Assembly: GCF_017469785.1 (NCBI RefSeq)
Contig: NZ_JAFUFU010000008.1
Source of the DNA: Treponema sp.
GTDB taxonomy: Bacteria > Spirochaetota > Spirochaetia > Treponematales > Treponemataceae
Length of the DNA stretch: 64,000 nucleotides
Strand: one strand, 5' to 3'
This document shows positions 2,033-16,606 of the stretch, piece after piece. The notes beneath the pieces are model-generated. The model was not told the DNA's origin. It made no database searches and saw only the letters and a list, made by a program, of their open reading frames with translations. Every line of letters starts with the position of its first letter. Within the stretch, counting starts at the first letter, position 1. Made by a program: the position numbers and the translations under genes.

Positions 2033-3025
2033 TTATATGGAGTTTAAAATATTTTCAAAAGCTTTTGGTAAGGGGGCGGAAATTTTCTCTGGTAAGTTCA
2101 GGGGGTTGTCCGGGGAAAAGTGGAGTTCTGAGGCGTGGAGGAAAAAATCCTGTCCCCATTTCTTTGAGTCGATTTTGCCGGAGCCGTAAGCCGTGTCGCC
2201 CAAGAGAGGAAAGCCGTGAAAGCCCGCCTGAGCGCGAATCTGATGAGTCCGACCGGTTTTTATGAGAACGCGAGCCAGGGTGATGTCTTTCCCCCAAAAA
2301 AGCCCGTGGGAAAGGGGGGTAACTTCCGTATGCGCCATTTTCCCCTCATCAGAATTCACCGAAACTGTATGAAATCTCCCGGAATCCTTTCTCCTTGTTC
2401 CTTGCTCATTGCTAATTTCTGATTTATCAATTTTCTCTTCCCAAATCTGATTTTCCGTGAGACTGCCTTCAAGAAGGGCCAGGTAGACTTTTTGAATCTC
2501 GTGGCTTTTAATCTTTTCGGAAAACCATTGCGCTCCCTGCAAATTCTGTGAAAAGGCGAGAAGACCCGTGGTTTTGCGGTCAAGGCGGTGGAGTGGGCCT
2601 GTCTTAAAGGAAAGTGAAGCCATTTCGTGGGTAGCCTGATATTCGTTCTGAACGGTTTCTGCCAGGGATTTGCCTTTAAAAGAGCTGGTCGGATGAACAG
2701 GAATATCGTAGGGCTTATTGAGAATGAGAAGGAAGTCATTTTTAAAGATGACGAGAGAATTCAGGCTGGAATCTTGGCATTCATTAGAATCAGGGGCTTT
2801 TTGAGATTGAGAATCGGACTTCAGCAGGATGTTCGCAATCGCTATGGAGCTGCCTTCGCTTACACGGAAATTCCCGTCGCATTTTTTGCCATCGACTTTT
2901 ATCAGGCCTTTGCGTAGTGATTTATATATGGAAGAAAGATTCTCTTCGCTTAAAAATCTGCGTAGGAGGCGGTCAAGGCGCCTGCCGGAATCATCCCTTC
3001 CAGCCTTAAAGTGCGTGAAATCCAT
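2033..3025 (-). CDS. RluA-family (RluC/RluD-type) pseudouridine synthase with an N-terminal S4 domain
   Basis: RLDRLLRRFL...LIKVDGKK is S4-like. HRLDRKTTGLLAF is the catalytic Asp motif. GRTHQIRAQ is also present. Confidence 0.85.
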   Translation of the reverse strand: MDFTHFKAGRDDSGRRLDRLLRRFLSEENLSSIYKSLRKGLIKVDGKKCDGNFRVSEGSSIAIANILLKSDSQSQKAPDSNECQDSSLNSLVIFKNDFLLILNKPYDIPVHPTSSFKGKSLAETVQNEYQATHEMASLSFKTGPLHRLDRKTTGLLAFSQNLQGAQWFSEKIKSHEIQKVYLALLEGSLTENQIWEEKIDKSEISNEQGTRRKDSGRFHTVSVNSDEGKMAHTEVTPLSHGLFWGKDITLARVLIKTGRTHQIRAQAGFHGFPLLGDTAYGSGKIDSKKWGQDFFLHASELHFSPDNPLNLPEKISAPLPKAFENILNSI

Positions 3026-3057: not shown

Positions 3058-6000
3058 TCAAAATTTAATCGTTCCGCCAATGCTTGCAGTCGCGCTTAAG
3101 GTGGCGCTTTTTCCCCAGTTCGCGTGATATCCTGCACCGATGCCTGTGTTGAGTGAGACATATTTTGAAAGCTGGGTCTCTGTTTCGTGGCTGTAAGCGA
3201 CGGTGTATTTCCGCGTGACTTTTCCGTTGGAAGAAGATGGAGAAGCCGAGTTTATCGAGATATTTACGCTGTCTGTTTTGGTGATCTTTGTTATTTTCGT
3301 TATGATTTCCTCATTGAAGATTCCGGCAATGCCTTTTGCAAGAGATGAATCGGACTTCCTCTTCCAGACAAGGGTGTATTTTGCCTTCCAGTCCTCTTTC
3401 CCCTCTGCGCTCCCCTCGATTCCGTTTTTGATGTAATTGCCGGACGAAAAATAATAGGAAGCCTGAATGTAGCCTGAGACGAGGAAAGTGTAATTTGATG
3501 GTTCTCCGCGAGGAATTTTTACCGCTGCGCTCATGGACGAGGCGTATTCATCGCTTTCAAAGATTTTGAAGAGGGCGAGCGTTCCCCTTCGTCCGAAAAT
3601 GTTCAAGGCAGTGTAGTTCACTGTGTTTTTAATCTGGTAGAAGTCACTGGTGTTGCTTCCTGTGCGAATGTCCCGGCTTGCCTCAAGTTTTGCGCTTTGG
3701 GGAATGAAAAAGTCGTAGCTGTTGGCAAAAAAAGCGCGCTTCCATGTGAATGCATAGGCTCCGGTGTAGAAATTGGAATCCTGATCCGTGGCCATAACTT
3801 CTTTTGAAAGACTGGAGCTTGCCAAATCATAAACCGGAAGGGCTTTCAGAAAATATGATTTTTCATTCAGCCGCTTTGAGAGATTTTCGCAATCCTGTCC
3901 GTAGCCGCCGCCTTTTTCAGTTTCTGCCGTGCTTCCCGCGCTTTTTTTCCATGAGAAGGCAAAGTTGTTTTTTTGGAGCGAAAAGGGGACTTCAATGCCG
4001 GCTTTTGATGAATCTGTAAAGGTAACTTTTGAGGCGGATTTGTAGTTTCCCTCGCTTTCAAAGAAAATTGCGGGCTTGAGCTTTGCAGTCTCAAAGGAAC
4101 AGGTCACTTTGCCCTCTGTGCCGACCGTGCGTTTTGAGGCTTTTTCGTCTCCCGTATCGAAACTTAGGTTCGTGATTTCTATCCATGATGAGGCGTAGTT
4201 TTCGGTCTTGAATTTTTCTTTTCCCGCTTGGGAAGAGGATGCCGCGGAATCAGTGAGGATTTTTTGTCCTGCTTTCGCTTTTGCGCTGATTGAGAAGGGG
4301 CCGATTTTTGCTTCTGAAGAGGTTTTTGTCTCTTGGCTCAGACTCCATGAGTCGCTTCCGGCCTTTGTCTCTGCCTGAATCGAGACGGGAATGTTCAAGG
4401 CGGAGAAATCGATTTTCGCGCTGTTTGCCTTTTCCAGGGAGCCGTCTGACGCGCTGTAGGAATAATTTTCTGAAAGCGAAAGAATCGAGAAAAGGGGCCT
4501 TTCCGTCTCGATTGAGTGACCGGCTGAGGACAGGGCGTTTTTCTGGGTAGAGTCGCTGGCTTTTTCCTGCTTGAAGGCGTTTGAAAGGCTTGCGCTGGTG
4601 CTGATTTTCAGCTTTGTAAGGGTAAAGCCGAGGCTTCCTGTCGTCTGTAGCGTGTTTCCCTTGATTCCTTCATGATTCGTTTGGATTGATGTGGCTCCGT
4701 TTCCCGTGGCCGAGACTGAGAGGTTTTTCAGGATTTCATGGTTCTTAGTCTTCAGAACCGGGCCTGTGATTTTGTAATCCGCCCGGGCTGTATCCTGCAT
4801 TACGATGAAGGGCGTGTTCCCGCTTAAATAAAGCTCGTCGAATAAAAGACTGCCGCTTTTTTTTGTGTCAATGAGAATTACCAGCCTTGTGGGAAGGATG
4901 TCCCTGTCGAGGTAGGTGAGCATTGAATCACTTCCGCCGGTCAGGTCAATTGTGTATTCCTGCCAGCTTTCAGAGAGCTTTTCGTCTGGAATCCTGTAGA
5001 CGATGGCAGTCTCTTCTTTTCCGTTTGATTTTGGCCTCAGCAATTTGACTGTGACGCTTCTCTCTGAATCAGATTCACCGGACTTATTTTTATATTTCAT
5101 GAAGAAGGAAAGTTTTTTGTATTCTGACAAATCGACTTCCTGGAATGTGCGCGAGAAATTGATTTCTGCCTTTTCATCTGTGTCGGAAGAAAATTCCCAT
5201 TCAAAATTCTGCACCCTGTTGCTTGAGTTCCTGTTGAATTTCTTTATTTTTGATGAAGAAAGGCTTGGATCCGTGCTTTGGAAATTCGTTCCCGTGACTT
5301 CTTCTGAATCGCAGGAAAATGTGAAGGTGAGTTCTCCTGTCTCGTAGGGACCTATAAGAATCGTTCCGCTTGATGGAAGGGAAGAGGGGGCGCTTGATGT
5401 GAGGATGAGTCGGACATTCGTGTCGCCAAGGTATGAGATTTTGCTCCTGTCTTCATCTGAAAGCCTTACCGTGACGGTCTGCCAGGCGGATTCTGTAAAG
5501 TCGAAGGCTGATTTCACCTGATTGGCAGTGCTGTCAGAAATCTTCCATGTGGGGATTTTATCGGATTCTTCAACGGAAAAGTCATCGTCTGCCGAAACTC
5601 CCAGCTGTAGATAGAGGGCGCACTTATCACTGTTGAAAGTTTCGTCCGCCGCAGGATTTTTTATTGCGATTGAGAATGTGCCGGAGGAGGCCAATGTGGA
5701 AGAAAGACCTGGCGTGTAAATGGACAGGGCTGCCCAAGCCTGATCCTCCCCGCTCCCAGCAGTGATTCCTGAAAAATCCCAGTCAAGAGGAACAGCATAG
5801 CCTGAAATTTCTGAATCAGTGGAGCCGTCAGAAGCGTCAAGTGTTCCGTTTTTTTGTGATTTCAACTCGGTTGATTCGGTTGAAGTGATGTCAGAGGATG
5901 ATTTTTCATTTAATGTGGGGGCAAATCCGGAGGGCAAATCAATTCCTGCTTTTTTTGACAGATAGTAGGTTTCGCCGTCACTGTCGTCGTTTCCGAGAAT

Positions 6001-7797
6001 CCTGTAAAATCCCGTGGTGTTTGTGTTTTCATAGCTTGAGGCCATGGTGTTGCTGGCGGAAAAAAATTCTCCGCTGTAGCTCACCCTGCTTGCTGCTGTG
6101 GCAAAACCTGTCGAGAAGTAGGTAGAGTCCGCAAATTCCCTCTCCGGAGAATGGCTCCATCTGACTGAGGCTGAGATGTCGGCAGAAACTTTGTCCGTAA
6201 AATCGTATTTGAGGCCGCCTGCCGCCGCCACCGCTCCCGATTCGCTGTCTTCGCTTTCTTCATACCATCTTGCCGTAATATGGTCTGAATTGGCAATGGC
6301 GTCAGAGAGGGTAATTGTGCCTGACTCGCTGTCATAGGCGGCCGTCGGGTCGATTATCCCGTTTTTGTAGACTGTAATTGTTCCAGCCACCGCATCTGTT
6401 CCGATTTCAAGGCGGTTTACCGGCGTAAAAGAGCGGACCTGAAGGCACAAGTCTTCATTTTCACCTGTTCTAAGATAAATTTTGGGGTGTTCCCATGCCA
6501 GTGGAAATGATGAGTGAATCAATTTCTCTGTCTCGTCCGTAGTTTCCTCATCGTCTGAAAGTGAAATGTCTGCATAAAGGTGGTTCGGATAGAAGAAATC
6601 AGTGCTTGCGAAAGAGAGATTGTCCTCGTCAATGAGAGCCGAATAGCTTGAGTCTGCTTTTCCCGTGCTGGAATATGCAATCTGGGCATCGCTGGCCGAA
6701 GATGAGCCGCAGTCATAACGGCTGGCCACCGCGAAGGGTGAGAAGCCCGATGGATGCTGCAGAAAAAGACAGTCCTCTCCGTCAATCGAATGGTAGGGCT
6801 CCCCGATTGATTTTCCTGCCAGTCCTGAATCTCCGGCCGTCTCAACGAACATGGCGTAAAAATAATTCTCAATCTTCACATTCTCGCTTTGTCCGAACCA
6901 GTCCTTGAGCTTTGAGAAAAATGGTTCAAAATCACTTTTGCTTACAGCTGAATAAAAAGTGACGGCAACTGCAGGCAGGACTCCGCCCTGACGGTAGGCC
7001 TTTGCGTCCTTTGAGAGCAAAATCTGTTTCTGGCTTGAAAGGAGCAGATACTGGCTCTCATCGAGTTTTTTGTATTTCCGGCCTTTAGTGTCCCGGTAAG
7101 AGCCGGAAGAACTTTCCACATACACGGCCTTAACCTTCTGGATGAGCGAGGCTTTTGGAAGGATGTACTGGCTTCCCGTGTTGTAGGCTGAAAGGGAGAT
7201 TTCCTTTATGCTCACGGCGTTTTTCCCGTACCATGTTTTTTCGTGGGCTTCAAGCAGGTCATAGCGAAGGACTGCATCGGCCTGCCAGTTATATCCCTTC
7301 CAGCTGGCGGAAATCCCAGGAGCCTGATTCTCGCCGCCTCCGATTCCCCGGTTTACGTCGTCAACGGAATATATTGAAGGAAAGAGAATTTTTCTGTTTG
7401 AAATCCTCAGTGATTTCAGGTATCCTTCTCCGATATAGCCTGCCGCTAGGGTGTTTTTCGTGAATTCGTCGGAAAATGCGGCCTCAAAATACCAGTGATG
7501 GTTCAGCATGAAATAAAGGGAGAGGTCCACATTCTGCGCGAATACCGGCGAGGTCGTTGAAAGCGTCGGTGTCGTTCCGAAGCCGAAAGAATAGGTCATG
7601 CCGCCTGTAACCGTGCTTTTCCAATAGCCCTCTGCAAAGAATTCCACATTCTGCTCTCCGAAATCATGGTTGAAAAGAGAGACGAATTTTCCCGAGTCCG
7701 AAAGGGGAAGCCTTGAAGTGTCAAAGACGATTCCTGCCGCACCATCCGCTTCTTTTTCTGTCGATGAGCTTCTTTTTTCACTTGCGGAAAGATTCTC
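3058..7797 (-). other. Giant Ser/Thr-rich secreted module ending in a beta-barrel-like C-terminus
   Basis: The last ~400 aa alternate hydrophobic and polar residues, and the protein ends ...SATASIGGTIKF. A terminal Phe is the classical OMP C-terminal signature. Confidence 0.5.
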
Positions 7798-9015
7798 AGC
7801 TTTTGCGGATTGCAGCGGAAGCAAGGCAAGAAGCAGGGCAAGGGATGTGGATCCAAGAAGCCGGGCCTTCGTGATTTTGAGACGGGGGTCCTTTTCCTGG
7901 GCTTTTAGGATTGCGTTTTCAAGCCGGCGTTTTTTTTCTTCTCCGAAGTCGAAAAGTTCCTGCTGTCTGGGAGTGCTTTCGTCCTCGATGTTCTGAAGTC
8001 CCAGCCCTAAAAGCCTGATTCCAAGAGCCGTGTTCCGCTTTTTCCTTAGGAGACTTTTTGCCCTCTCAAAGAGGTCGTCCACGCTTGAGACATAACGCTC
8101 GCTGGTCTCCTGAACGCTGACTGTGGAAAAGTCTTCGTAGCGGATTTTCAGGGCCACTGTGCCGCTTCTCACTTTCTCCCTGAGGGAGCGGAACATGACC
8201 GTGTGTGAAAGGGAGAGAAGGGCCGTCTCGATGGCGTCCGTGTCGGTCAAATCGTATTCATAAGTGCTTTCCGCGCTGATTGAGCGGGATTTAGGCTCTG
8301 CATGGAAGTCAAGTCCCTCGTTTCCCCGCACCGCATTGTACAAAAATGAGCCGGCTGCATTTCCAAAAAGGCTCTGCAGAAGTTTTTCCGAGCGATTGTA
8401 GATGTCACGGGTACTTTTGATTCCGTAGTTTTCGAGTTTTTCCAGGGTCTTCTTTCCGGCTCCCCAGACTTTTGTAATAGGAAGGGAGAGCATGAATTCA
8501 CTTTCATGTCCTGGGGGCACGATTGTAAGTCCGTTTGGTTTTTCCAGCCCCGAGGCGATTTTTGCGCAGTATTTTGTGGAGGCAAGCCCCACCGAGACCG
8601 TGAGCCCTGTCTTTTCAAGCACTTCTTTTTTGAGCCGTCTCGCCGTCTCCTCTGGCGGGCCGAAAAGCTTTTCCGTTCCCGTAAGGTCTATGAAAGCCTC
8701 GTCAACGGAAATCTGCTGTATGTCAGGGGAATATTCCCTGAAAATCGCCATCACTTCCTCGCTCTTTTCGTGGTAGCGGCGCATGTCGGGACGCACATAG
8801 ATTCCATTGGGGCAGAGTTTTACCGCCTGAAAGGTTGGCATGGCTGAGTGCACTCCGAAGGCCCGCGCCTCATAGGAAGCCGTGGAGACGACTGATCTGC
8901 GGTCAGAAGGCAAGCCTCCCACAATGACAGGCTTTCCCCGGTAGTCAGGGTGGTCGAGCTGCTCGACAGAGGCGAAAAAAGCATCTAAATCCACATGGAG
9001 GAAAACCTTATTCAC
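3058..9015 (-). CDS. Single uninterrupted 1985-codon ORF: DNA polymerase IV module, internal signal peptide, and a ~1580-aa predicted outer-membrane protein
   Basis: There is no stop codon between the GTG at 9015 and the TAA at 3058-3060. See the sub-features and the finding. Confidence 0.7.
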   Translation of the reverse strand: MNKVFLHVDLDAFFASVEQLDHPDYRGKPVIVGGLPSDRRSVVSTASYEARAFGVHSAMPTFQAVKLCPNGIYVRPDMRRYHEKSEEVMAIFREYSPDIQQISVDEAFIDLTGTEKLFGPPEETARRLKKEVLEKTGLTVSVGLASTKYCAKIASGLEKPNGLTIVPPGHESEFMLSLPITKVWGAGKKTLEKLENYGIKSTRDIYNRSEKLLQSLFGNAAGSFLYNAVRGNEGLDFHAEPKSRSISAESTYEYDLTDTDAIETALLSLSHTVMFRSLREKVRSGTVALKIRYEDFSTVSVQETSERYVSSVDDLFERAKSLLRKKRNTALGIRLLGLGLQNIEDESTPRQQELFDFGEEKKRRLENAILKAQEKDPRLKITKARLLGSTSLALLLALLPLQSAKAENLSASEKRSSSTEKEADGAAGIVFDTSRLPLSDSGKFVSLFNHDFGEQNVEFFAEGYWKSTVTGGMTYSFGFGTTPTLSTTSPVFAQNVDLSLYFMLNHHWYFEAAFSDEFTKNTLAAGYIGEGYLKSLRISNRKILFPSIYSVDDVNRGIGGGENQAPGISASWKGYNWQADAVLRYDLLEAHEKTWYGKNAVSIKEISLSAYNTGSQYILPKASLIQKVKAVYVESSSGSYRDTKGRKYKKLDESQYLLLSSQKQILLSKDAKAYRQGGVLPAVAVTFYSAVSKSDFEPFFSKLKDWFGQSENVKIENYFYAMFVETAGDSGLAGKSIGEPYHSIDGEDCLFLQHPSGFSPFAVASRYDCGSSSASDAQIAYSSTGKADSSYSALIDEDNLSFASTDFFYPNHLYADISLSDDEETTDETEKLIHSSFPLAWEHPKIYLRTGENEDLCLQVRSFTPVNRLEIGTDAVAGTITVYKNGIIDPTAAYDSESGTITLSDAIANSDHITARWYEESEDSESGAVAAAGGLKYDFTDKVSADISASVRWSHSPEREFADSTYFSTGFATAASRVSYSGEFFSASNTMASSYENTNTTGFYRILGNDDSDGETYYLSKKAGIDLPSGFAPTLNEKSSSDITSTESTELKSQKNGTLDASDGSTDSEISGYAVPLDWDFSGITAGSGEDQAWAALSIYTPGLSSTLASSGTFSIAIKNPAADETFNSDKCALYLQLGVSADDDFSVEESDKIPTWKISDSTANQVKSAFDFTESAWQTVTVRLSDEDRSKISYLGDTNVRLILTSSAPSSLPSSGTILIGPYETGELTFTFSCDSEEVTGTNFQSTDPSLSSSKIKKFNRNSSNRVQNFEWEFSSDTDEKAEINFSRTFQEVDLSEYKKLSFFMKYKNKSGESDSERSVTVKLLRPKSNGKEETAIVYRIPDEKLSESWQEYTIDLTGGSDSMLTYLDRDILPTRLVILIDTKKSGSLLFDELYLSGNTPFIVMQDTARADYKITGPVLKTKNHEILKNLSVSATGNGATSIQTNHEGIKGNTLQTTGSLGFTLTKLKISTSASLSNAFKQEKASDSTQKNALSSAGHSIETERPLFSILSLSENYSYSASDGSLEKANSAKIDFSALNIPVSIQAETKAGSDSWSLSQETKTSSEAKIGPFSISAKAKAGQKILTDSAASSSQAGKEKFKTENYASSWIEITNLSFDTGDEKASKRTVGTEGKVTCSFETAKLKPAIFFESEGNYKSASKVTFTDSSKAGIEVPFSLQKNNFAFSWKKSAGSTAETEKGGGYGQDCENLSKRLNEKSYFLKALPVYDLASSSLSKEVMATDQDSNFYTGAYAFTWKRAFFANSYDFFIPQSAKLEASRDIRTGSNTSDFYQIKNTVNYTALNIFGRRGTLALFKIFESDEYASSMSAAVKIPRGEPSNYTFLVSGYIQASYYFSSGNYIKNGIEGSAEGKEDWKAKYTLVWKRKSDSSLAKGIAGIFNEEIITKITKITKTDSVNISINSASPSSSNGKVTRKYTVAYSHETETQLSKYVSLNTGIGAGYHANWGKSATLSATASIGGTIKF
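7798..7875 (-). other. Internal Sec-type signal peptide (aa 381-406)
   Basis: ITKARLLGSTSLALLLALLPLQSAKA|E has a basic n-region, a Leu/Ala h-region and an A-x-A cleavage motif. Confidence 0.6.
7891..9015 (-). other. dinB: DNA polymerase IV (Y-family) module, aa 1-375 of the long ORF
   Basis: VFLHVDLDAFFASVEQL, SVDEAFIDLTG, a little-finger-like C-terminal part, and normal DinB length. Confidence 0.9.
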
Positions 9016-11049
9016 TTATTCGACCTTCAGCTCCCGTTTTTCGCTTCGGAAAGTATTGGCTTCCTCTGTCCTGTAATAAGCCGTTATCTCAATTGAGGCG
9101 TTTGCTTTTGCCGGAGCCGCGTAGTCAATGGTAATCTGTCTCGGCGGATAGTCCGGAACGACGAACACATAGGAATCATTTCCCTGAGAGTCAGTGATGA
9201 GAGTGTATTTGTAGATTGAGTCATAAATCGGATGTGCCGTTTCTATTCCCCTGAGGGTAACTTCGTATCTGAGCGCATCTTCTTCTGAGCTGATGCTGAT
9301 GTGGTTCGTGTTCATGCCTGAAAACTCGTTTTTGCTGAGTTTTGCGGACAGGGTAAATTTTTCTTCACGTACAATTTTTGTCTCGATTTTTCCTGCTGCC
9401 CGCTCATAAGGACGGTAGATGAAGTGCGATATAAGGAAAATGACGAGAGAAATGAAGGCCAGAATTACGATGGTTGACAGAAAACCGTTCAGGATTATTT
9501 TTTTCATGGTGTAGCCTTTGATACCAGCCTGAACATTCAGCAATACGAGCATTCTCAGCCAGGTGATCTGGAATGGAAAAAGCCCCAGGGCAAGCATCAG
9601 GTTCCCGACTGGCGTGGCAAAGACCGTCCTCATCAGCTCTATGTCTTCCGCCTGCCTGATGATGATGAATCCGTGGGGCAGAAACGGAATGAACATGAGA
9701 AAAAAATAGACTATAAGGGATGGAAGGCGTTTCGCGCTCCTTGAGACATAAATTATGATATATTCAAGCGCAAAGATTACGAAAAGCGTCAGGTCCTGTG
9801 CCGAAAAAAGGAAGATGTTGAAGATGGCAACCACCAGAAGCAGATAGCCGTACATGAAGGCTGTGACCGAAATCTTCAGTATTCCCTGAACCGTAAAAAG
9901 CGCAGAGATGAAAATCATTGAGAATACTATTTTGATTCCATAAAGGACGATAGGATTCAGCTGGAAAAAAGAAGAGAGAATGGAGACGATGTGCTGTCCC
10001 AAAACAAGGGAAAGAAAAGACAGTGATACAGTGAAGGGAATCATGTAGCTTGATTTCTGGAATTCGTACTTGTGCCTTTCTCCGTTTTCTCCGATGAAAG
10101 AAAATGCACACAAAAGGAAAATCGTGAAAAGCCCCACTGACAGACAGGTGATGATGATTGTGCGCTCCGAGATGAAAACAGCCCGGAAAAGCGGCGAGCG
10201 GTTTATATAGAGATAGTGCTTGTCCCATTCACCGCTTCCGTCGGCGGTGTAGTTTTCGGAGAATTTCTTAAGGACAGACAAGCCCGTGTAATCTGAAAAA
10301 TGAATTTCTATTGAAGGGATATCATTGATGAAAAAATAGGAAAGCCTCTCCTGTCCCCGGACGATTCCCAGCCGGTAAATCGCGGAGACAATGTTTTCAA
10401 AGGAAAAGTCTCTCTTTTCGTCGTAGAAAGCGTCTGAAATTTGTTTCGTGAGCCACAGGGGCGTTGTGTTTTTGTAGCTTCCGGTGTATATCGAGGTCTC
10501 TGAATTTGGATCAAAGGAAAGCACAATGGCACAGCTTGAATCGGAGTCGTCAATGGATGCGGCGAAAACCTCGGTTCCGTTAACGGCTTTATGTGATATT
10601 TTGGGCGGGGTGTCAAGGGCCGAAAAAAGGATTCTTGCAGTCCACGTACGCTCCATTGCTTTAATGGAAGAAAGAAAATCGAGTATTCCCGGCTGGTATG
10701 CGATAAAATCTTCCTGAGTAAAGCAGAATATGACTTCCTTGCGACTTATGTCCTGAGAATCTGACTGTTCCGTCTCATTGCCTTTCAGCGACGGATCGAA
10801 TTCCACAATGATGTTGTATGCAAAATCATCCTGCCCTGTTGAGGTAAGCTGTTGCACATAAGCCGTGTATCCGTTTTTTTCAAGGGTAGCGGCGACTGAT
10901 TGAGAAAGTTTATTGCCAAAAATTGCCGTTTCTTCAGAAAATTTCTCCGGGAAAATTGAAAAATATGCCGAAAATAACAGAAGGGCAGAACTGATAATCT
11001 TGCGAAAAACCATTACAATAAGAATATAATTTGTCAGTTTACAATTCAA
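9016..11049 (-). CDS. Polytopic membrane protein with a ~290-aa extracytoplasmic N-domain, about 9 TM segments and a soluble C-domain
   Basis: N-terminal hydrophobic anchor, long hydrophobic core (aa ~300-540) and no recognisable catalytic motif. An alternative start at Met13 (11013) is possible. Confidence 0.6.
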   Translation of the reverse strand: MNCKLTNYILIVMVFRKIISSALLLFSAYFSIFPEKFSEETAIFGNKLSQSVAATLEKNGYTAYVQQLTSTGQDDFAYNIIVEFDPSLKGNETEQSDSQDISRKEVIFCFTQEDFIAYQPGILDFLSSIKAMERTWTARILFSALDTPPKISHKAVNGTEVFAASIDDSDSSCAIVLSFDPNSETSIYTGSYKNTTPLWLTKQISDAFYDEKRDFSFENIVSAIYRLGIVRGQERLSYFFINDIPSIEIHFSDYTGLSVLKKFSENYTADGSGEWDKHYLYINRSPLFRAVFISERTIIITCLSVGLFTIFLLCAFSFIGENGERHKYEFQKSSYMIPFTVSLSFLSLVLGQHIVSILSSFFQLNPIVLYGIKIVFSMIFISALFTVQGILKISVTAFMYGYLLLVVAIFNIFLFSAQDLTLFVIFALEYIIIYVSRSAKRLPSLIVYFFLMFIPFLPHGFIIIRQAEDIELMRTVFATPVGNLMLALGLFPFQITWLRMLVLLNVQAGIKGYTMKKIILNGFLSTIVILAFISLVIFLISHFIYRPYERAAGKIETKIVREEKFTLSAKLSKNEFSGMNTNHISISSEEDALRYEVTLRGIETAHPIYDSIYKYTLITDSQGNDSYVFVVPDYPPRQITIDYAAPAKANASIEITAYYRTEEANTFRSEKRELKVE

Positions 11050-11089: not shown

Positions 11090-12256
11090 ATGCCTGCTGA
11101 AAAAAAGTTTATTTTGAACCTGCCGCTAAAGGTTATTCTTACTGAAGAAGGCACATCACACTTCATCAGCAACAAAAAAAAGCTTCTTCGCATTCGTCTT
11201 GCAGACAATCTTGAAGAATACGGCATTTCTCTCAATCCTTTCTCGCCCCAGTCGATTCAGAACATGATTATGGTCGATTACATTTCCAAAATCGAAATCT
11301 CCATGTCAGAATTCGTGTCTGTTCGTCAGGAAGTTATGGATTTGGCAAAAGTTGTCGTCTATTCAATTCTCTATAAGCAGTTTGACCGTCAGGTTTTTGC
11401 CGATGTCATCAAGTGCGACTGTGTGCGCAAGCATAACCGTGCCAATCCTAGCGAACTCATCGACGAGCGGACCAGAATCGAGGACAAGCAGCTTCGCGCA
11501 ATGATTTCTAAAAAAGAGAGCGTCATACGGCAGGCCAAAAAAGAAATCCTTGATCCTGTCTGGAAGTCTATCATGGAGAACAAAGAGTATTCTCTTGAAG
11601 AGCGCAATATCTATCTGCTCATGACAGAAAAATTCCTCAACAGGCTTTCTTTGATGAATTGGTACATCATCCTCAAATTTTTCAAAGATAAAGAGGGATT
11701 CTCTCAGATAAATATCGCAATCCGTCACCTTCTCCAGATTTATATGGAAAAGTCTCGTGTCGCTGAATACATTTCCATTCTTCTCATGGAACTTGCCCTC
11801 AATGCCGAAAACCAGAACCTCAAAAAAGAGGCAAAGGTCCTTTACAACGGCGTTGACGATTTGGATTCTCTGCTTTTTGACCCGGAAGTTCGCACCAAAA
11901 TCATAAATGAACTCAAACGCAAGCATGAGCTGGTGTCTCTTTCTTGGAAGCTCGGTGGCGGTTCTACGGCAATCGGCAAGCAGGGGCGCTTGCAGATTAT
12001 GGTCTTGAACAAAAGCGACGAAAATCAGGAAGCAAAGGCAAATATCGAAGACAAGATGGCTGCCGATACGAACAAGCGTTCCCTTATCGACTTCTACCGT
12101 GAGATTCCGGACGGTCAGGGAAGCACTGATTTGGGCCTCTATTACCTTTCATATCTTGACGATGCCTGTAAAAAACTGAACGTAAAATTCGAGTCTATCG
12201 TCAATCAGTTTGCAAATCAGGATTTGACAGTCATAAACTTGATTTTCAATTTCTAA
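11090..12256 (+). CDS. Hypothetical protein with a degenerate GHKL/SpoIIAB-like C-terminal domain
   Basis: An N-box-like LLMELALNAE and a G2-like GSTDLGLYYLSYL are present. The DxGxG box is not intact (MVLNKSDEN). Confidence 0.4.
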   Translation: MPAEKKFILNLPLKVILTEEGTSHFISNKKKLLRIRLADNLEEYGISLNPFSPQSIQNMIMVDYISKIEISMSEFVSVRQEVMDLAKVVVYSILYKQFDRQVFADVIKCDCVRKHNRANPSELIDERTRIEDKQLRAMISKKESVIRQAKKEILDPVWKSIMENKEYSLEERNIYLLMTEKFLNRLSLMNWYIILKFFKDKEGFSQINIAIRHLLQIYMEKSRVAEYISILLMELALNAENQNLKKEAKVLYNGVDDLDSLLFDPEVRTKIINELKRKHELVSLSWKLGGGSTAIGKQGRLQIMVLNKSDENQEAKANIEDKMAADTNKRSLIDFYREIPDGQGSTDLGLYYLSYLDDACKKLNVKFESIVNQFANQDLTVINLIFNF

Positions 12257-12913
12257 ATGCGTACAGTTTTATTTACTCTTTGCCTATCTTTTCTGGCTTT
12301 CTCTTTTTTTTCCTGTTCTGACAGCGAGGCGGATGTTGTTTCTGTTCAGGCTACGGCTGTTTTTGATTTTGAAGCCAATGACAAGCCTCCGGTGAGCAGA
12401 CTGGCTGTCTTTCTCCAAGTTACGAATGCACTTCAGCGCACGGATAGCTTTGCAGTGTCTCATGGAGAGTCCGGCTACTCATGGCTTGTATCTAAACCGG
12501 GGATTTTTACCGGCATGAATAAGAGCTATGCCTATTCTGTGAATCTCAAACCGCCAGAAAGCGAGGCAATTCCCACGGGAGCCTATTCAGTAACCTATTA
12601 TGATGCTGCCGGAAAGGAAGACTCAATGAATTTCGCCGTGAATTACGACAGCGGTCTCTTGCAGGCAACTCCTGAAAATTTCCGGGACTATCTTCCGAAC
12701 GCGGCTGAAAACGTTGCGATATACGATGAGGAAGGGGAGCTTCTGTTCATGGGAAAGGCCAAAAACTCATGGAAAACCCCCGCTGATATTCAAAAAGACT
12801 ATAAACTTGCTTTCTTGAAAAGAACCTGCTATGTAACGGCCGGTAATTCGGTGATATGCCTTATGCCGGGCGAAGTTCTAAAAGAAAGCGAAAAGGTGAA
12901 AATTGAAAACTGA
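12257..12913 (+). CDS. Lipoprotein, function unknown
   Basis: The signal peptide [20 protein letters not shown] contains a lipobox Cys. The ATG directly follows the upstream TAA. Confidence 0.7.
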
Positions 12914-13622
12914 AAACGAAACACTCGAAAGAAAATCTGACGGAATCCACCGTGAAATCCACACTTTCGTCCTGAGACAGGGGCATTTCACTGCATCGGA
13001 GCGTAAGGCCTACGAAGAAATGCACGATGTATTCTGCATTCCCTATTCAGAAGAAAAATTGGACTTCAAAAAAATCTTCGGGAACGAAAATCCGGTAGTA
13101 ATCGAAATCGGATTCGGCATGGGAAAGGCTACGGCAATCATCGCTTCCGAAAATCCACAGGTTAATTATCTGGGAATAGAGGTTCATAAGCCTGGGGTCG
13201 GTAAACTGCTCGGAGAAATCCGTGACCGCTCTTTAAAGAATCTGCGCATAATCGAGCATGACGCGATGGAAGTCCTTAAAAACCAGATTTCAGATTCTAG
13301 CGTCGCGGCTTTCCACATATTTTTCCCTGACCCATGGCAGAAAAAGCGGCACTTCAAGCGAAGGCTCGTGCAGCGTCCGCGCACCGACTTGATGACACAG
13401 AAACTCGCCGCTGGGGGCTACCTCTATTTTGTCACTGACTGGCTTCCCTATGCTGAATTCGGCTTGGAAGAGCTTTCGGCAACAGAGGGCTTGAAAAACC
13501 GCTACGATGGATTTGCACCTCATCAGGAATGGCGGCCGGAAACCCGTTTTGAGCAGAAGGGGCTTGACGCGAACCGCGTAATCAGCGAGCTTATGTTCGA
13601 GAAGATTTCAAAGGAAGCGTAA
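12903..13622 (+). CDS. trmB: tRNA (guanine46-N7)-methyltransferase
   Basis: [10 protein letters not shown] is the SAM motif, and [16 protein letters not shown] is a TrmB hallmark. The start codon is TTG. Confidence 0.9.
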
Positions 13623-13652
13623 AGGGGCAAAAGCTTCTTTCTTAATAATTCC

Positions 13653-13681
13653 TTGAAAATTTCAATATTTTGTGATATTCT
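13653..13681 (+). promoter_or_regulatory. Putative sigma70 promoter of the STAS operon
   Basis: TTGAAA at 13653-13658, a 17-nt spacer, then TGaTATTCT with the -10 at 13676-13681. Confidence 0.45.
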
Positions 13682-13692
13682 ATTAACTAGGA

Positions 13693-13720
13693 ATCTCTAA
13701 AAATTGCAATTTTTAGAGAT
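13693..13720. promoter_or_regulatory. Perfect 28-bp palindrome (operator or 5'-leader hairpin)
   Basis: ATCTCTAAAAATTG|CAATTTTTAGAGAT has 14-nt arms with no mismatch. It lies just downstream of the predicted -10 and 28 nt upstream of the ATG at 13749. Confidence 0.6.
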
Positions 13721-13748
13721 ACCCACTATCTTTTATTAGGAGCAAGCA

Positions 13749-14042
13749 ATGACTGTAACAAAAACACAGAGTGGAACTGAGGCAACTCTCAGCATTGAAG
13801 GCCGTCTTGATACTATCACCGCACCGGAATTAGAAAAGGAAATTACCGCTGTTAGCGATGCGTCTTCACTTGTAATTGATTTTTCCAGGCTTGATTACAT
13901 TTCTTCGGCGGGCCTCCGCGTTCTTCTTTCTGCACACAAAGCTTATGCTCGAAAAGGCGGGCTTACCATCACAAATGTAAATGATACTGTGCTTGATATT
14001 TTTGATGTTACCGGCTTCAAAGATATCCTCAACATAAAATAG
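13749..14042 (+). CDS. STAS-domain anti-sigma-factor antagonist (SpoIIAA-like)
   Basis: 97 aa. DFSRLDYISSAGLRVLL contains the conserved phosphorylatable Ser context. Confidence 0.85.
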   Translation: MTVTKTQSGTEATLSIEGRLDTITAPELEKEITAVSDASSLVIDFSRLDYISSAGLRVLLSAHKAYARKGGLTITNVNDTVLDIFDVTGFKDILNIK

Positions 14043-14050
14043 GAGTCCGC

Positions 14051-14647
14051 ATGAAATCTAATGTCTGTACTCTTCCGCGAGAGGCAAAGGATACTGCTTC
14101 TCTCTCGGATATTTTAAACGAAAGCGAAAAGGTTGCTTCTTACTGCGGCCTCGATAAAAAATCTTCCGGCAGGCTTCGGCTTCTCGCAGAGGAGCTTGTC
14201 GGTATGCTTCCTGAACTTTTGAGTTTTAGTTCCGGTGAATTTTGGATTGATTCAGAAGGCACAACTTTTGAGTTGCATACGGTTCTGACTCCGGACGAAA
14301 ACATGACATACGACCTGCGCGAAAAATTGCTGGCAGTCTCTTCAAATGGCAAAAATGAGGCTGCGAAAGGCATCATGTCAAAAATTCGTCTTGCTGCGGC
14401 CTTCATGCTTATTGACTATGAGGAAAATGCTTTCATAAACGAAGGATTTTATGCTGCTGGTCTTGACCCAAGTCAGGCTGTATATTCAGCCGTATGGAAC
14501 CTTGATACATATCGCCGAAAAGCAAAGGAAAAACAGGGCGAGGAATGGGACGAACTTGAGCGCTCAATTATTGCGAACATTGCGGATGACGTTTTGGTGG
14601 GCGTACAGGGAAAGCGGGTAGACATAATCGTAAAGAAAACATTCTGA
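14051..14647 (+). CDS. Hypothetical protein co-transcribed with the STAS gene
   Basis: AGGAG RBS and an 8-nt gap after the STAS stop. No Bergerat-fold or PP2C motif is recognisable. Confidence 0.5.
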   Translation: MKSNVCTLPREAKDTASLSDILNESEKVASYCGLDKKSSGRLRLLAEELVGMLPELLSFSSGEFWIDSEGTTFELHTVLTPDENMTYDLREKLLAVSSNGKNEAAKGIMSKIRLAAAFMLIDYEENAFINEGFYAAGLDPSQAVYSAVWNLDTYRRKAKEKQGEEWDELERSIIANIADDVLVGVQGKRVDIIVKKTF

Positions 14648-14662
14648 TTAAAAGCGCGAAAA

Positions 14663-16606
14663 ATGGCAGATTTATTTGACATTGAGCAATCGGCCCGTAT
14701 CAGCGAGCTTTCGACTTTAATCAAAAAATATCAGGACTCATATTACAACGGCGAGGGCGAAATCTCTGACGCCGAATTTGACAGGCTCTGGGATGAGCTG
14801 AAATCCCTTGACCCCGGGAATCCTCTTCTCCAGCGGGTGGGAGCCGACAGCGGAAACTTTGCAAAAATCCGCCACATCATGCCTATGGGAAGCCAGGAAA
14901 AGGCGGCCAATCCCGAACAATTTTTGGCATGGGCAAAAAATCACGCTTACGATGAATATCTGGTTGAGTACAAACTGGACGGAGCATCTTTGGAACTTCA
15001 ATATGTTCACGGCGAGCTTATGAGGGCTGTTACCCGCGGCGACGGAACGATTGGAGACGACATCACGGCCAACGCAAAAAAAATGCAGGGCGTTCAGGCG
15101 GCTCTCTTTGATTGTGAACACAAAAAAATCGATTTTACGGGCGGAATCCGAGGCGAAGTTATTATGAGCCACACCGTCCACGAAAAATTCTATTCCGACA
15201 AGGCAAACTGCCGTAATGCCGCCAACGGTCTCATGAAGCGAAAAGACGGAAGCGGAAGCGAAAATCTCCTTCTTATGACTTATGATGCCCTTGCCACGGA
15301 AGGGGAAAGTCCTTTTTCAGACGAAGAGGGAAAAATCAGCTGGCTTAAAAGCATGGGCTTTAAGACTTCTCCATTAAAAATCTGCAAAAGCGCGGAAGAT
15401 GTAATTTCTTACCGGGCAGAAGTAATGGAAGAGCGAAAAAGCCTTGACTACGATATCGACGGCCTTGTCATAAAAGAGCGGAGGATTGACCTTGCGGACG
15501 CAAGCCGCGCCCGCCCTGACCGGCAGATTGCATTTAAATTTTCCCTTGAAGAGGCAGTCTCTGTCTTGCGAGAGGTTGAGTGGAGCGAGTCGGGCGCGAC
15601 CTACACCCCGGTGGCAATTTTTGACGAAGTTCAGCTAAACGGAACCACTGTTCAGCGCGCTTCCCTTGCAAATCCCGACACCATGCGCTCTCTGGGAGTC
15701 AAAATCGGAAGCAGGGTTGTGGTCGTAAAGAGGGGAGAAATCATTCCAAAAATCGAAAGCGTTTTGCCTGAGGAAGAAGGGCAGAAAACAAGCGCTATTA
15801 TTTTCCCCAGTACCTGCGCTGTCTGCGGAACCGCACTTCGGGACGAGGGCAGCCGGCTTTTCTGCCCAAATAAATCCTGCGAGAAGAGAGTGCTGCACCA
15901 GCTTCAAAAATGGGTGGGCGTGGTAGACATCCGCGACTTTGGAGATACCCTTTTGCGCTCCCTTTTTAAAAATAAGGAAGTCACTTCAATTTCCGACATT
16001 TACTCCCTTACGACAGAAAGCCTTGTCCCTTATTTTTTAAACGAAGAGTCAATAGAAAGCCAGAAAGATTCCCTTGGCGCAAAAAAAGTTTACGAAAGCA
16101 TTCAGAATCACAGACGCATGTCACTTGCTGTCTTTATCGCGGGCTTTGACATCGAGGGAATGGGCGAAACCATGGTACAAAAACTCATTGACGCGGGCTT
16201 TACTACGCTGGAAAAACTCCTTTCTGCCAGCGAAGAAGAAATTGCCGCCGTCTATGGCTTTGCCGAAATCACAGCCAAAATCTTCGTGGAAGGTCTGGCT
16301 GAAAACGCCGAGGAAATGCGCTCCCTCGTGGCCAATGGCATTATTCAAATCGAGGAAATCGGTGGCGGAGCCCTGAGCGGAAAATCATTCTGCTTTACGG
16401 GCGAGCTTCGCACGATGAAAAGGGCTGACGCTGAGGCTATGGTCAAAAAAGCGGGAGGCAGCTGCAAATCCTCCGTTACAAAAGACCTGAGCTACTTGGT
16501 TACCAACGACACGGAAAGCGGCTCCAGCAAGAATGTTAAAGCCGCCAAATTCGGAATTCCTATTATCAATGAAGAGGAATTCCTTCGCTTAGTGAACGGA
16601 ATTTAA
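14663..16606 (+). CDS. ligA: NAD-dependent DNA ligase
   Basis: The adenylation motif EYKLDG, the Zn finger CAVCGTAL...CPNKSC, HhH repeats and a C-terminal BRCT (GKSFCFTGEL). Confidence 0.95.
   Translation: MADLFDIEQSARISELSTLIKKYQDSYYNGEGEISDAEFDRLWDELKSLDPGNPLLQRVGADSGNFAKIRHIMPMGSQEKAANPEQFLAWAKNHAYDEYLVEYKLDGASLELQYVHGELMRAVTRGDGTIGDDITANAKKMQGVQAALFDCEHKKIDFTGGIRGEVIMSHTVHEKFYSDKANCRNAANGLMKRKDGSGSENLLLMTYDALATEGESPFSDEEGKISWLKSMGFKTSPLKICKSAEDVISYRAEVMEERKSLDYDIDGLVIKERRIDLADASRARPDRQIAFKFSLEEAVSVLREVEWSESGATYTPVAIFDEVQLNGTTVQRASLANPDTMRSLGVKIGSRVVVVKRGEIIPKIESVLPEEEGQKTSAIIFPSTCAVCGTALRDEGSRLFCPNKSCEKRVLHQLQKWVGVVDIRDFGDTLLRSLFKNKEVTSISDIYSLTTESLVPYFLNEESIESQKDSLGAKKVYESIQNHRRMSLAVFIAGFDIEGMGETMVQKLIDAGFTTLEKLLSASEEEIAAVYGFAEITAKIFVEGLAENAEEMRSLVANGIIQIEEIGGGALSGKSFCFTGELRTMKRADAEAMVKKAGGSCKSSVTKDLSYLVTNDTESGSSKNVKAAKFGIPIINEEEFLRLVNGI

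Follow-up and report, generated by a model that had tools for sequence, protein, structure and literature searches.

A conserved in-frame fusion of DinB with a SprA-like giant envelope protein in Treponema, proposed to be a cross-compartment polyprotein

In a contig of Treponema sp. (NZ_JAFUFU010000008.1, assembly GCF_017469785.1), a single open reading frame (ORF) on the minus strand joins a complete DNA polymerase IV (DinB) to a signal-peptide-like segment and a giant envelope protein, dinB~signal~SprA-like protein, without any stop codon in between. The stretch that was analysed, called the window in the following, comprises 64,000 nucleotides of this contig, and the fused ORF occupies positions 3058..9015 (-) of it. 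That the fusion is genomic and conserved is virtually certain, and we consider it highly probable that the ORF is translated as one chain. The reading that we favour, with a probability of about 0.6 on the sequence evidence, is that of a cross-compartment polyprotein, which arose by a real and ancient gene fusion in a large clade of Treponema and which would be cut at the membrane by signal peptidase. Its targeting, its cleavage and the fate of the DinB part are the steps of this model that we infer.

A polymerase and an envelope protein in one reading frame

Direct reading of the ORF gave 1985 codons from the GTG at position 9015 with zero internal stops, as an earlier note on this DNA had claimed, and the stop codon, given there as TAA, was found to be TGA at 3058-3060 ('aaa ttt tga'). 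The other two frames around the junction are closed by stops. The next gene, which codes for an RluA-type pseudouridine synthase (2033-3025), begins 33 nt downstream of this TGA. The ORF does not represent a free-standing DinB of 350-420 aa, as it runs 1600 codons further; it contains two functional modules with a signal-peptide-like segment between them, which is the layout of a polyprotein of the FbcH type.

The first of these modules (aa 1-380, 7876..9015 (-)) could be identified by Pfam, NCBIfam and its catalytic motifs as the full-length Y-family polymerase IV that the earlier note had seen at the N-terminus. Pfam finds the IMS domain (PF00817) at aa 8-155 (1.1e-52, 178 bits, cut-off 23.2) and the little-finger domain IMS_C (PF11799) at aa 244-354 (5.1e-21, 75.6 bits, cut-off 20.7), the NCBIfam Pol IV equivalog PRK02406 (NF002677) scores 335 bits against a cut-off of 256, and a family profile matches solved Pol IV structures at 7e-110. 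Other Pol IV models extend the alignment to aa 385-391, and the sequence KITKARLL therefore is the normal C-terminal tail of DinB and not a linker. The catalytic motifs VDLDAFFASVE and SVDEAF, which provide the acidic D-x-D and D-E residues, are present in the window and are retained in 92-101 of the 106 fused homologues described below when strict regular expressions are applied. A motif of the beta-clamp-binding type, QQELF (Q-x-x-L-F, aa 351-355, 7951..7965 (-)), is located 35 residues before the hydrophobic core of the following segment; we take it to be the clamp motif via the known QL[SD]LF consensus, clamp binding being predicted only. The corresponding pattern Q-x-x-[LMF]-F occurs in 146 of 158 fused homologues, at a median distance of 37 residues ahead of the core. 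DinB is also the most conserved part of the locus, with 85% identity to T. ruminis, as compared to 66% for the barrel and 61% for a 677-aa protein encoded directly upstream. Judged by its catalytic and clamp motifs and by this conservation, the DinB module looks functional.

One of three readings that had been offered for the junction was that the dinB stop and the downstream start have been lost or miscalled. Taken by itself, the window gives no protection against an artefact of sequencing, assembly or gene calling that removes a stop and a start, and one relative, T. zioleckii kT3 (L015, the L numbers denoting loci of our set), indeed differs by a single base. The comparative data, however, speak clearly against such an artefact. 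A search with aa 361-1985 as query against 5.8 billion proteins gave 155 scored homologues, and 106 of the 120 that were listed are fused proteins of 1854-2076 aa with the DinB Pfam domains, down to 32% identity; their database name is 'DNA polymerase IV [Treponema sp.]', and one stems from the finished T. parvum genome. When 1.84 billion 50%-identity representatives were searched exhaustively with phmmer, the barrel family comprised 421 members (50%-identity clusters) at E<=1e-3, and among the best 150 of these 421 there are 75 with an N-terminal extension of about 400 aa, fused down to 26% identity, and 51 full-length standalone proteins. From one genome per species, 46 loci were recovered (47 including the window), and DinB and barrel share one stop-free frame in 35 of the 46, or 36 counting the window, including T. 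ruminis RU1 (L004, complete), T. parvum ATCC 700773 (L045, complete) and T. porcinum ATCC BAA-908 (L034). The length of a given fused protein is moreover the same in as many as 9 independent assemblies. Since the architecture recurs in more than 100 divergent homologues, which come from independent projects and include two finished isolate genomes, it is far beyond chance, and we give an artefact practically no credit. The comparison of orthologous junctions proposed in the earlier note thus had a simple outcome, namely the same in-frame fusion in 36 related loci and a stop with a separate start only in split relatives.

The junction and the internal signal peptide

The junction reads as it had been quoted, with ITKARLLG from aa 381 (nt 7875) and A-K-A reaching to aa 406 (nt 7798), and no ATG, GTG or TTG is located between the polymerase and the signal peptide. 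In-frame near-start codons between aa 344 and aa 393 are limited to ATC at aa 369 and at aa 381. The latter, at 7873-7875, has the sequence AAGGA ending 13 nt upstream, as had been observed. An in-frame TTG (aa 398) and two CTG codons (aa 394, 401) sit inside the hydrophobic core.

The ATC at aa 381 gives some room for the view that the two proteins are made independently, with the barrel initiating at a non-canonical junction codon (e.g. ATC 7873-7875), while the ribosomes that translate DinB would either continue in a wasteful read-through or be halted by some other mechanism. Besides the nearby AAGGA, it is in line with this view that Ile or Val is widely conserved at this position, that most of the codons used (ATC, ATT, ATA, GTG) are near-cognate starts, and that 7 of the 36 fused loci possess a canonical in-frame start with a motif resembling a Shine-Dalgarno (SD) sequence nearby. 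The Ile, however, belongs to the ordinary DinB tail that Pol IV models from other bacteria align, and the AAGGA is not conserved, because the underlying E-K-D/N-P is replaced by E-K-K-H-P and other variants. A codon-level alignment demonstrated that the junction is conserved as amino acids only and that synonymous sites vary freely; the conserved Ile is encoded by ATC, ATT or ATA, and sometimes Val is found (GTA or GTG). A conserved SD sequence or start at the junction was sought by codon alignment and counting in the 36 fused loci, and none was found: the canonical starts in the 7 loci differ in position, and 16 of the 36 do not contain any ATG, GTG or TTG in the 30 codons ahead of the core. 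As the nucleotides are not conserved and almost half of the loci are startless, separate initiation is very unlikely, and the non-canonical internal start behind a DinB lacking a terminator, as considered in the earlier note, is left unsupported. In the absence of a stop codon, the DinB ribosomes must run on into the signal peptide anyway. The frame is moreover kept across many indels in the linker, which is expected only if selection acts on read-through, and the in-frame continuity itself appears to be kept by selection. A 2A-like 'NPG' peptide in the DinB tail, as suggested by EKNPGLKI in relatives, was rejected, since the window has EKDPRL and the following Pro is lacking; 2A peptides, moreover, are not known to act on bacterial ribosomes.

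A free DinB could also be generated beside the full fusion if some ribosomes or RNA polymerases slip on a run of eight adenines (A8; GAA GAA AAA AAA), and the resulting protein would possess the clamp motif and lack the tail and the membrane segment. This run (7930..7937 (-), codons E360-K361-K362) forms a possible slippery heptamer A_AAA_AAA just past the clamp motif, and a stop is reached within 6-15 codons in either alternative frame. A run of A8 or A9 is present there in most close relatives, and in T. zioleckii kT3 (L015, ~6070-6100) one extra base beside the run (GGTGATAGAAAAAAAACGC compared to the expected GGTGATGAAAAAAAACGC) splits the ORF. DinB then terminates after another 22 codons, and the barrel ORF, now with a GTG start, has a long n-region that is derived from the former DinB tail; either the split is real and recent, or the base is a sequencing error next to a homopolymer. 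Against slippage, the run is absent or interrupted in L009, L031, L036, L037 and L047 and is reduced to A6 in L007, and other Lys-Lys codons in these genes have A runs of like length. As the run is not specifically conserved and has equals elsewhere, a preference for AAA codons in the conserved EEKKR is sufficient as explanation. A programmed frameshift at this site was rejected on these grounds, and slippage is retained only as a minor alternative, which is quite unlikely, and which could also coexist with the polyprotein.

The segment into which the DinB tail runs (aa 381-406, 7798..7875 (-)) is predicted to be an internal Sec-type signal peptide with the n-region KITKAR, the h-region LLGSTSLALLLALLPL and the c-region QSAKA, and with a predicted cut between A-K-A and Glu. 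There is no spacer, as the tail passes directly into LLGSTSLALLLALLPLQSAKA followed by this Glu, and KITKARLL serves twice, as C-terminal tail of DinB and as basic n-region of the signal peptide. The 'textbook' signal peptide of the earlier note has the tripartite pattern, and it begins at aa 381 of the ORF; it is N-terminal only in the standalone homologues. By rule-based scoring, in which the -3/-1 rule is permissive, the tripartite pattern is present in 106 of 106 fused and in 11 of 11 standalone homologues, and candidate -3/-1 sites are found in all 106 fused proteins. The fused homologues share the tail '...Q-x-E-L-F-D-F-G-E-E-K-K-R-K-x-E-x-A-I-L...K-I-x-K-A-R-L-L', after which 0-15 mostly basic or polar residues, the core and the c-region follow, and the net charge of the n-region before the core is +2 to +3 (median +3); the median length of the uncharged stretch in these proteins is 16-17 aa. 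In the close clade, the c-region retains Pro some 6-7 residues ahead of the cut and Gln near position -5, and the -3/-1 residues vary and yet stay small (AKA, ARA, SYA, AGA, TQA, VHS).

The standalone barrel proteins all begin with an ordinary signal peptide, in which Met and a few basic residues are followed by a hydrophobic core and a small-x-small site (e.g. MKRHFLKK-ILAFSLFSSC), and aa 381-406 are therefore homologous to a functioning N-terminal signal peptide. The two forms were compared in 158 fused and 55 standalone proteins by Mann-Whitney U tests. The median hydrophobicity of the core is 2.75 in fused and 2.63 in standalone proteins (p=0.29), and the uncharged stretch has a median of 16 aa in fused and of 18 aa in standalone proteins (p=0.03), which means that it is slightly shorter in the fused form. 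An adaptation of the segment to a longer or more hydrophobic anchor was consequently rejected, as there is no difference in the expected direction. Charge, stretch, hydrophobicity and -3/-1 residues show no meaningful difference between the two forms. The segment has thus not been lengthened into a stable anchor, and in its appearance it resembles a signal peptide that is cut off more than one that stays in the membrane.

The envelope module and a model for its maturation

The mature giant envelope protein would comprise aa 407-1985 (1579 aa, 3061..7797 (-)), and it ends with the C-terminal strand ...ATASIGGTIKF (3061..3090 (-)), whose terminal Phe is typical for the beta-signal of outer-membrane proteins. 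The structure prediction that the earlier note had proposed was carried out with AlphaFold2 (AF2) in two overlapping pieces on a 62-sequence alignment, and it yielded strands of the barrel type (mean predicted local distance difference test score of 82 for aa 787-1985 and of 78 for aa 331-1150). In the order of the chain, the models contain the helix of the DinB tail, then a second helix, of low confidence, which corresponds to the hydrophobic segment, a disordered, Ser/Thr/Glu-rich N-terminus of the envelope module that reaches to about aa 432, and then long antiparallel strands. Some 35-40 long beta strands with interposed beta-sandwich domains are predicted in total, and about 26 consecutive long strands form the final stretch, of which ...GGTIKF is the last. 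The terminal Phe and the Gly five residues earlier are invariant in the 62 homologues (G1194 and F1199 of the modelled segment). The half-models thus possess the antiparallel strands and the C-terminal aromatic beta-signal of an outer-membrane beta-barrel.

A Foldseek search against the PDB placed SprA, the translocon of the type 9 system for secretion (T9SS) of Flavobacterium johnsoniae, in the top four matches for both halves (chains 8gl8_A, 8gl6_A and 6h3i_A), with best E-values of 2.9e-24 for one half and 4.2e-15 for the other. Among unrelated folds, the best matches were at E>=2e-7 and 3e-3 only, and LptD, ushers and porins only at E>=7e-5. The TM-scores against SprA are low, 0.24-0.31 (0.31 over the query for the match at E 2.9e-24), as expected because half-barrels cannot close. 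By its predicted fold, the envelope module is a SprA-like giant outer-membrane barrel, which supports and sharpens the 'beta-barrel-type envelope protein' with an OMP-like end of the earlier note. An identity as TamB/AsmA-like protein or LptD, which had also been considered, found no support, SprA being the only strong fold match.

At the level of sequence, the module has no Pfam match at E<=10, no NCBIfam match and no match by phmmer against the PDB, and a hidden Markov model of the family built from 54 sequences found nothing at E<=10 among PDB sequences; a profile that still included DinB found only Y-family polymerases. Among the immediate neighbour genes there are no members of T9SS families. 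The envelope module is not filed as a T9SS component, because sequence membership fails, the host belongs to the wrong phylum, and the conserved neighbour is the unrelated 677-aa protein.

Between the barrel strands, the models place beta-sandwich domains at window positions ~4850-6000 (-) (ORF aa ~1004-1386), and these gave separate Foldseek matches to the carbohydrate-binding modules CBM11, CBM16 and CBM30 and to reelin repeats. This suggests that the insert is a binding domain exposed to the surface or to the periplasm.

Based on these features, the polyprotein would most likely mature as follows. Translation from the GTG at 9015, coupled to that of the upstream membrane-protein gene, would first yield a complete and catalytically competent DinB in the cytoplasm. 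The basic tail KITKARLL, together with the hydrophobic core and A-x-A, would then act as an internal Sec signal peptide, which targets the nascent chain to SecYEG as it emerges, probably during translation, such that the N-terminus stays inside, the C-terminus comes to lie outside, and 1579 residues are exported. Signal peptidase I would release the giant protein by a cut after Ala406, and the BAM machinery, which assembles beta-barrels, would insert the SprA-like barrel into the outer membrane by means of the C-terminal Phe signal. DinB would keep the signal peptide as a C-terminal membrane anchor, and it would either remain sequestered or be released once proteases of the SppA or RseP type degrade the remnant. 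Of the three readings in the earlier note, it is this single chain, in which an internal signal leads to the secretion of a giant domain, that has the best support, given the conserved frame and a signal that looks cleavable rather than anchoring.

As alternative, the segment could be an uncleaved signal-anchor, which would result in one bitopic protein that spans the envelope, with DinB on the cytoplasmic face and the beta domain in the periplasm or outer membrane. The continuous and conserved ORF fits equally to this arrangement, the -3/-1 test is permissive, and bacteria commonly possess type II anchors that carry large cytoplasmic N-domains. We nevertheless think that a permanent anchor is unlikely. 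An uncharged stretch of only 16 aa in the median is not longer than that of the standalone N-terminal signal peptides, and the c-region keeps its pattern, a Pro some 6-7 residues upstream and small residues at -3/-1, while the residues themselves change; a short core resembling that of signal peptides and a maintained c-region favour cleavage over an anchor. The barrel of the mature part, with its conserved terminal Phe, furthermore belongs to the outer membrane and so must leave the inner one. The AF2 model has only about 26 disordered residues between the cleavage site and the first barrel strands, a linker that would be too short to bridge the periplasm, and this also favours cleavage over a permanent anchor.

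A further extension of the cleaved polyprotein would be that DinB is a secretion-coupled, membrane-tethered pro-enzyme, which the signal remnant anchors and which an intramembrane protease of the RseP or SppA type frees to the replisome. We regard this as speculative and rather improbable. In the tethered state, the clamp motif would be held about 35 residues from the membrane. If true, mutagenic translesion synthesis would be tied directly to envelope biogenesis or envelope stress, and the system would be the covalent equivalent of the sequestration of UmuC and would resemble, in a bacterium, the maturation of the hepatitis C virus (HCV) core protein.

Unfused relatives, neighbouring genes and known systems

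The upstream partner gene (9016..11049 (-)) codes for the 677-aa protein mentioned above, a polytopic membrane protein of no known family, for which no match was found in Pfam, NCBIfam or the PDB. Its TAA is immediately followed by the GTG of dinB, a layout that points to translational coupling. The protein shares 38% identity with a protein of the dinB-less locus L001 whose gene lies immediately ahead of the standalone barrel gene, and the 677-aa gene is present upstream of dinB or of the barrel gene in every arrangement that was examined, except in the remote standalone locus L048. A divergent group of genes follows in the window at 11090-16606 (+), coding for a DUF8084-like 388-aa protein, a 218-aa protein, a TrmB-type methyltransferase and the NAD-dependent DNA ligase LigA. 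This neighbourhood is syntenic with the barrel gene in the window, L001 and L048, even for a 27%-identical standalone homologue without dinB and the 677-aa gene.

The unfused loci were read by tblastn and direct inspection. In the fused loci, the 677-aa gene is followed by the fused dinB~barrel ORF. Where dinB is absent (L001, L019, L021, L030), the 677-aa gene is followed by the barrel gene, and synteny is otherwise identical (LigA, TrmB, DUF8084 gene). The two genes are split and adjacent in L017, where the dinB stop overlaps the ATG of the barrel gene as GTATGA (ATGA; ~6185-6200), and in L042 and L044, where DinB ends with '...KKARLLTKDHR*' and a spacer of ~100 nt precedes the barrel protein 'MLKKAL...'. 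In L016 and L043, the 677-aa gene and dinB are on one strand and the barrel gene is convergent on the other, and L015 carries the single-base split at the A8 run. The DinB proteins of the split relatives terminate 5-10 residues past KARLL. The ATGA overlap of L017 is a classic layout for translational coupling, so that co-expression persists after unfusing, and the existence of unfused arrangements means that the DinB and barrel modules can work apart. One JGI contig of 20,013 bases carries 333-aa and 1634-aa members of the P0172 cluster (90% identity), which is otherwise fused (1975-1993 aa), and this pair may reflect either a frameshift error or a further split at the level of strains.

In a neighbour-joining (NJ) tree of the barrel part, the fused state is found on all deep ingroup branches, the unfused loci are nested within, and the spacer-split L042 is the outgroup, which suggests one old fusion that was followed by several reversals. 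It is here that the polyprotein has to face several arguments against it. The NJ tree is midpoint-rooted, and the polarity of fused and split states is therefore provisional. The fusion was undone at least three times (L017/L016/L043 clade, L015, dinB-less clade), and it is thus dispensable and perhaps merely tolerated or nearly neutral rather than advantageous. A signal peptide behind a folded domain of 380 aa is unusual in bacteria, and its handling by the signal recognition particle or by SecA is conjectural. Finally, the whole case is built from sequences and models, and the signal peptide was called by rule-based scoring with a permissive -3/-1 rule.

Should the protein be synthesised and processed in this way, we would know of no earlier example in bacteria of an outer-membrane protein and a soluble cytoplasmic enzyme that derive from a common precursor and are set apart from each other by the general secretion machinery. 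A Sec signal peptide would then be able to work ~380 residues into a chain and behind a folded domain, and the possibility would arise that a mutagenic polymerase is controlled by membrane tethering. The annotation as a 'DNA polymerase IV' of ~2000 aa hides an envelope protein. In spirochaetes, there is moreover a large family of giant SprA-like barrels without annotation (the 421 clusters at 50% identity), which is paired with the uncharacterised 677-aa membrane protein. The combination of both hints at an outer-membrane transport machine outside the Bacteroidota.

Full-text literature searches found no description of a DinB-envelope fusion, which agrees with the statement of the earlier note that such an arrangement has not been described for DinB. 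Surveys of bacterial Y-family and other DNA polymerases (including PMC6511836) make no mention of this architecture, and a preprint on Brachyspira outer-membrane proteins refers to SprA in another context only. A bacterial polyprotein with an internal signal peptide is a known kind of gene product, and what appears to be new is the broadly conserved pairing of DinB with a barrel, of which no description was found.

For its N-terminal half, the obvious reference is the stand-alone DinB, with which it shares the full set of palm, fingers, thumb and little finger, the catalytic acids, the clamp-type motif and the basic C-terminal tail. The difference is that the tail of the Treponema protein has no stop and continues into the hydrophobic segment and 1579 more residues.

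The closest relative in terms of gene organization is the cytochrome b/c1 precursor FbcH of Bradyrhizobium japonicum, which is reportedly split at an internal signal sequence. With FbcH, the Treponema protein would share one bacterial ORF for two mature proteins, an internal signal that exports the downstream part, and a cut on the periplasmic side. However, the two halves of FbcH are subunits of one membrane complex and its upstream half is polytopic, whereas the upstream half of the Treponema protein is a soluble cytoplasmic polymerase without known link to the barrel, and its cleavage is a prediction. Polyproteins of flaviviruses and hepaciviruses provide another parallel: capsid or core is followed by an internal signal for prM or E1, signal peptidase cuts at the far side, and a second, intramembrane or cytoplasmic cut by signal peptide peptidase or NS2B-3 frees the anchored protein. 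Here too, a cytoplasmic nucleic-acid-binding protein precedes the internal signal, and the signal peptide would serve as anchor after the first cut. These systems are viral and operate at the eukaryotic endoplasmic reticulum, whereas the Treponema protein would use Sec and BAM, and its second protease site is hypothetical.

A spatial control of a Y-family polymerase has a precedent in UmuC (Pol V) of E. coli, which is transiently sequestered at the inner membrane before it gains access to DNA (PMC6511836). UmuC, however, is neither covalently anchored nor part of a secreted precursor, and the tethering of the Treponema DinB is predicted.

With SprA/Sov (6h3i, 8gl6, 8gl8), finally, the predicted barrel shares the very large single-chain architecture, the long strands and the inserted beta-sandwich domains. 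It differs in that there is no similarity at the sequence level, in its size of ~1580 aa as compared to ~2400 aa for SprA, and in its host, which is a spirochaete and not a member of the Bacteroidota, with no T9SS partner genes seen adjacent to it.

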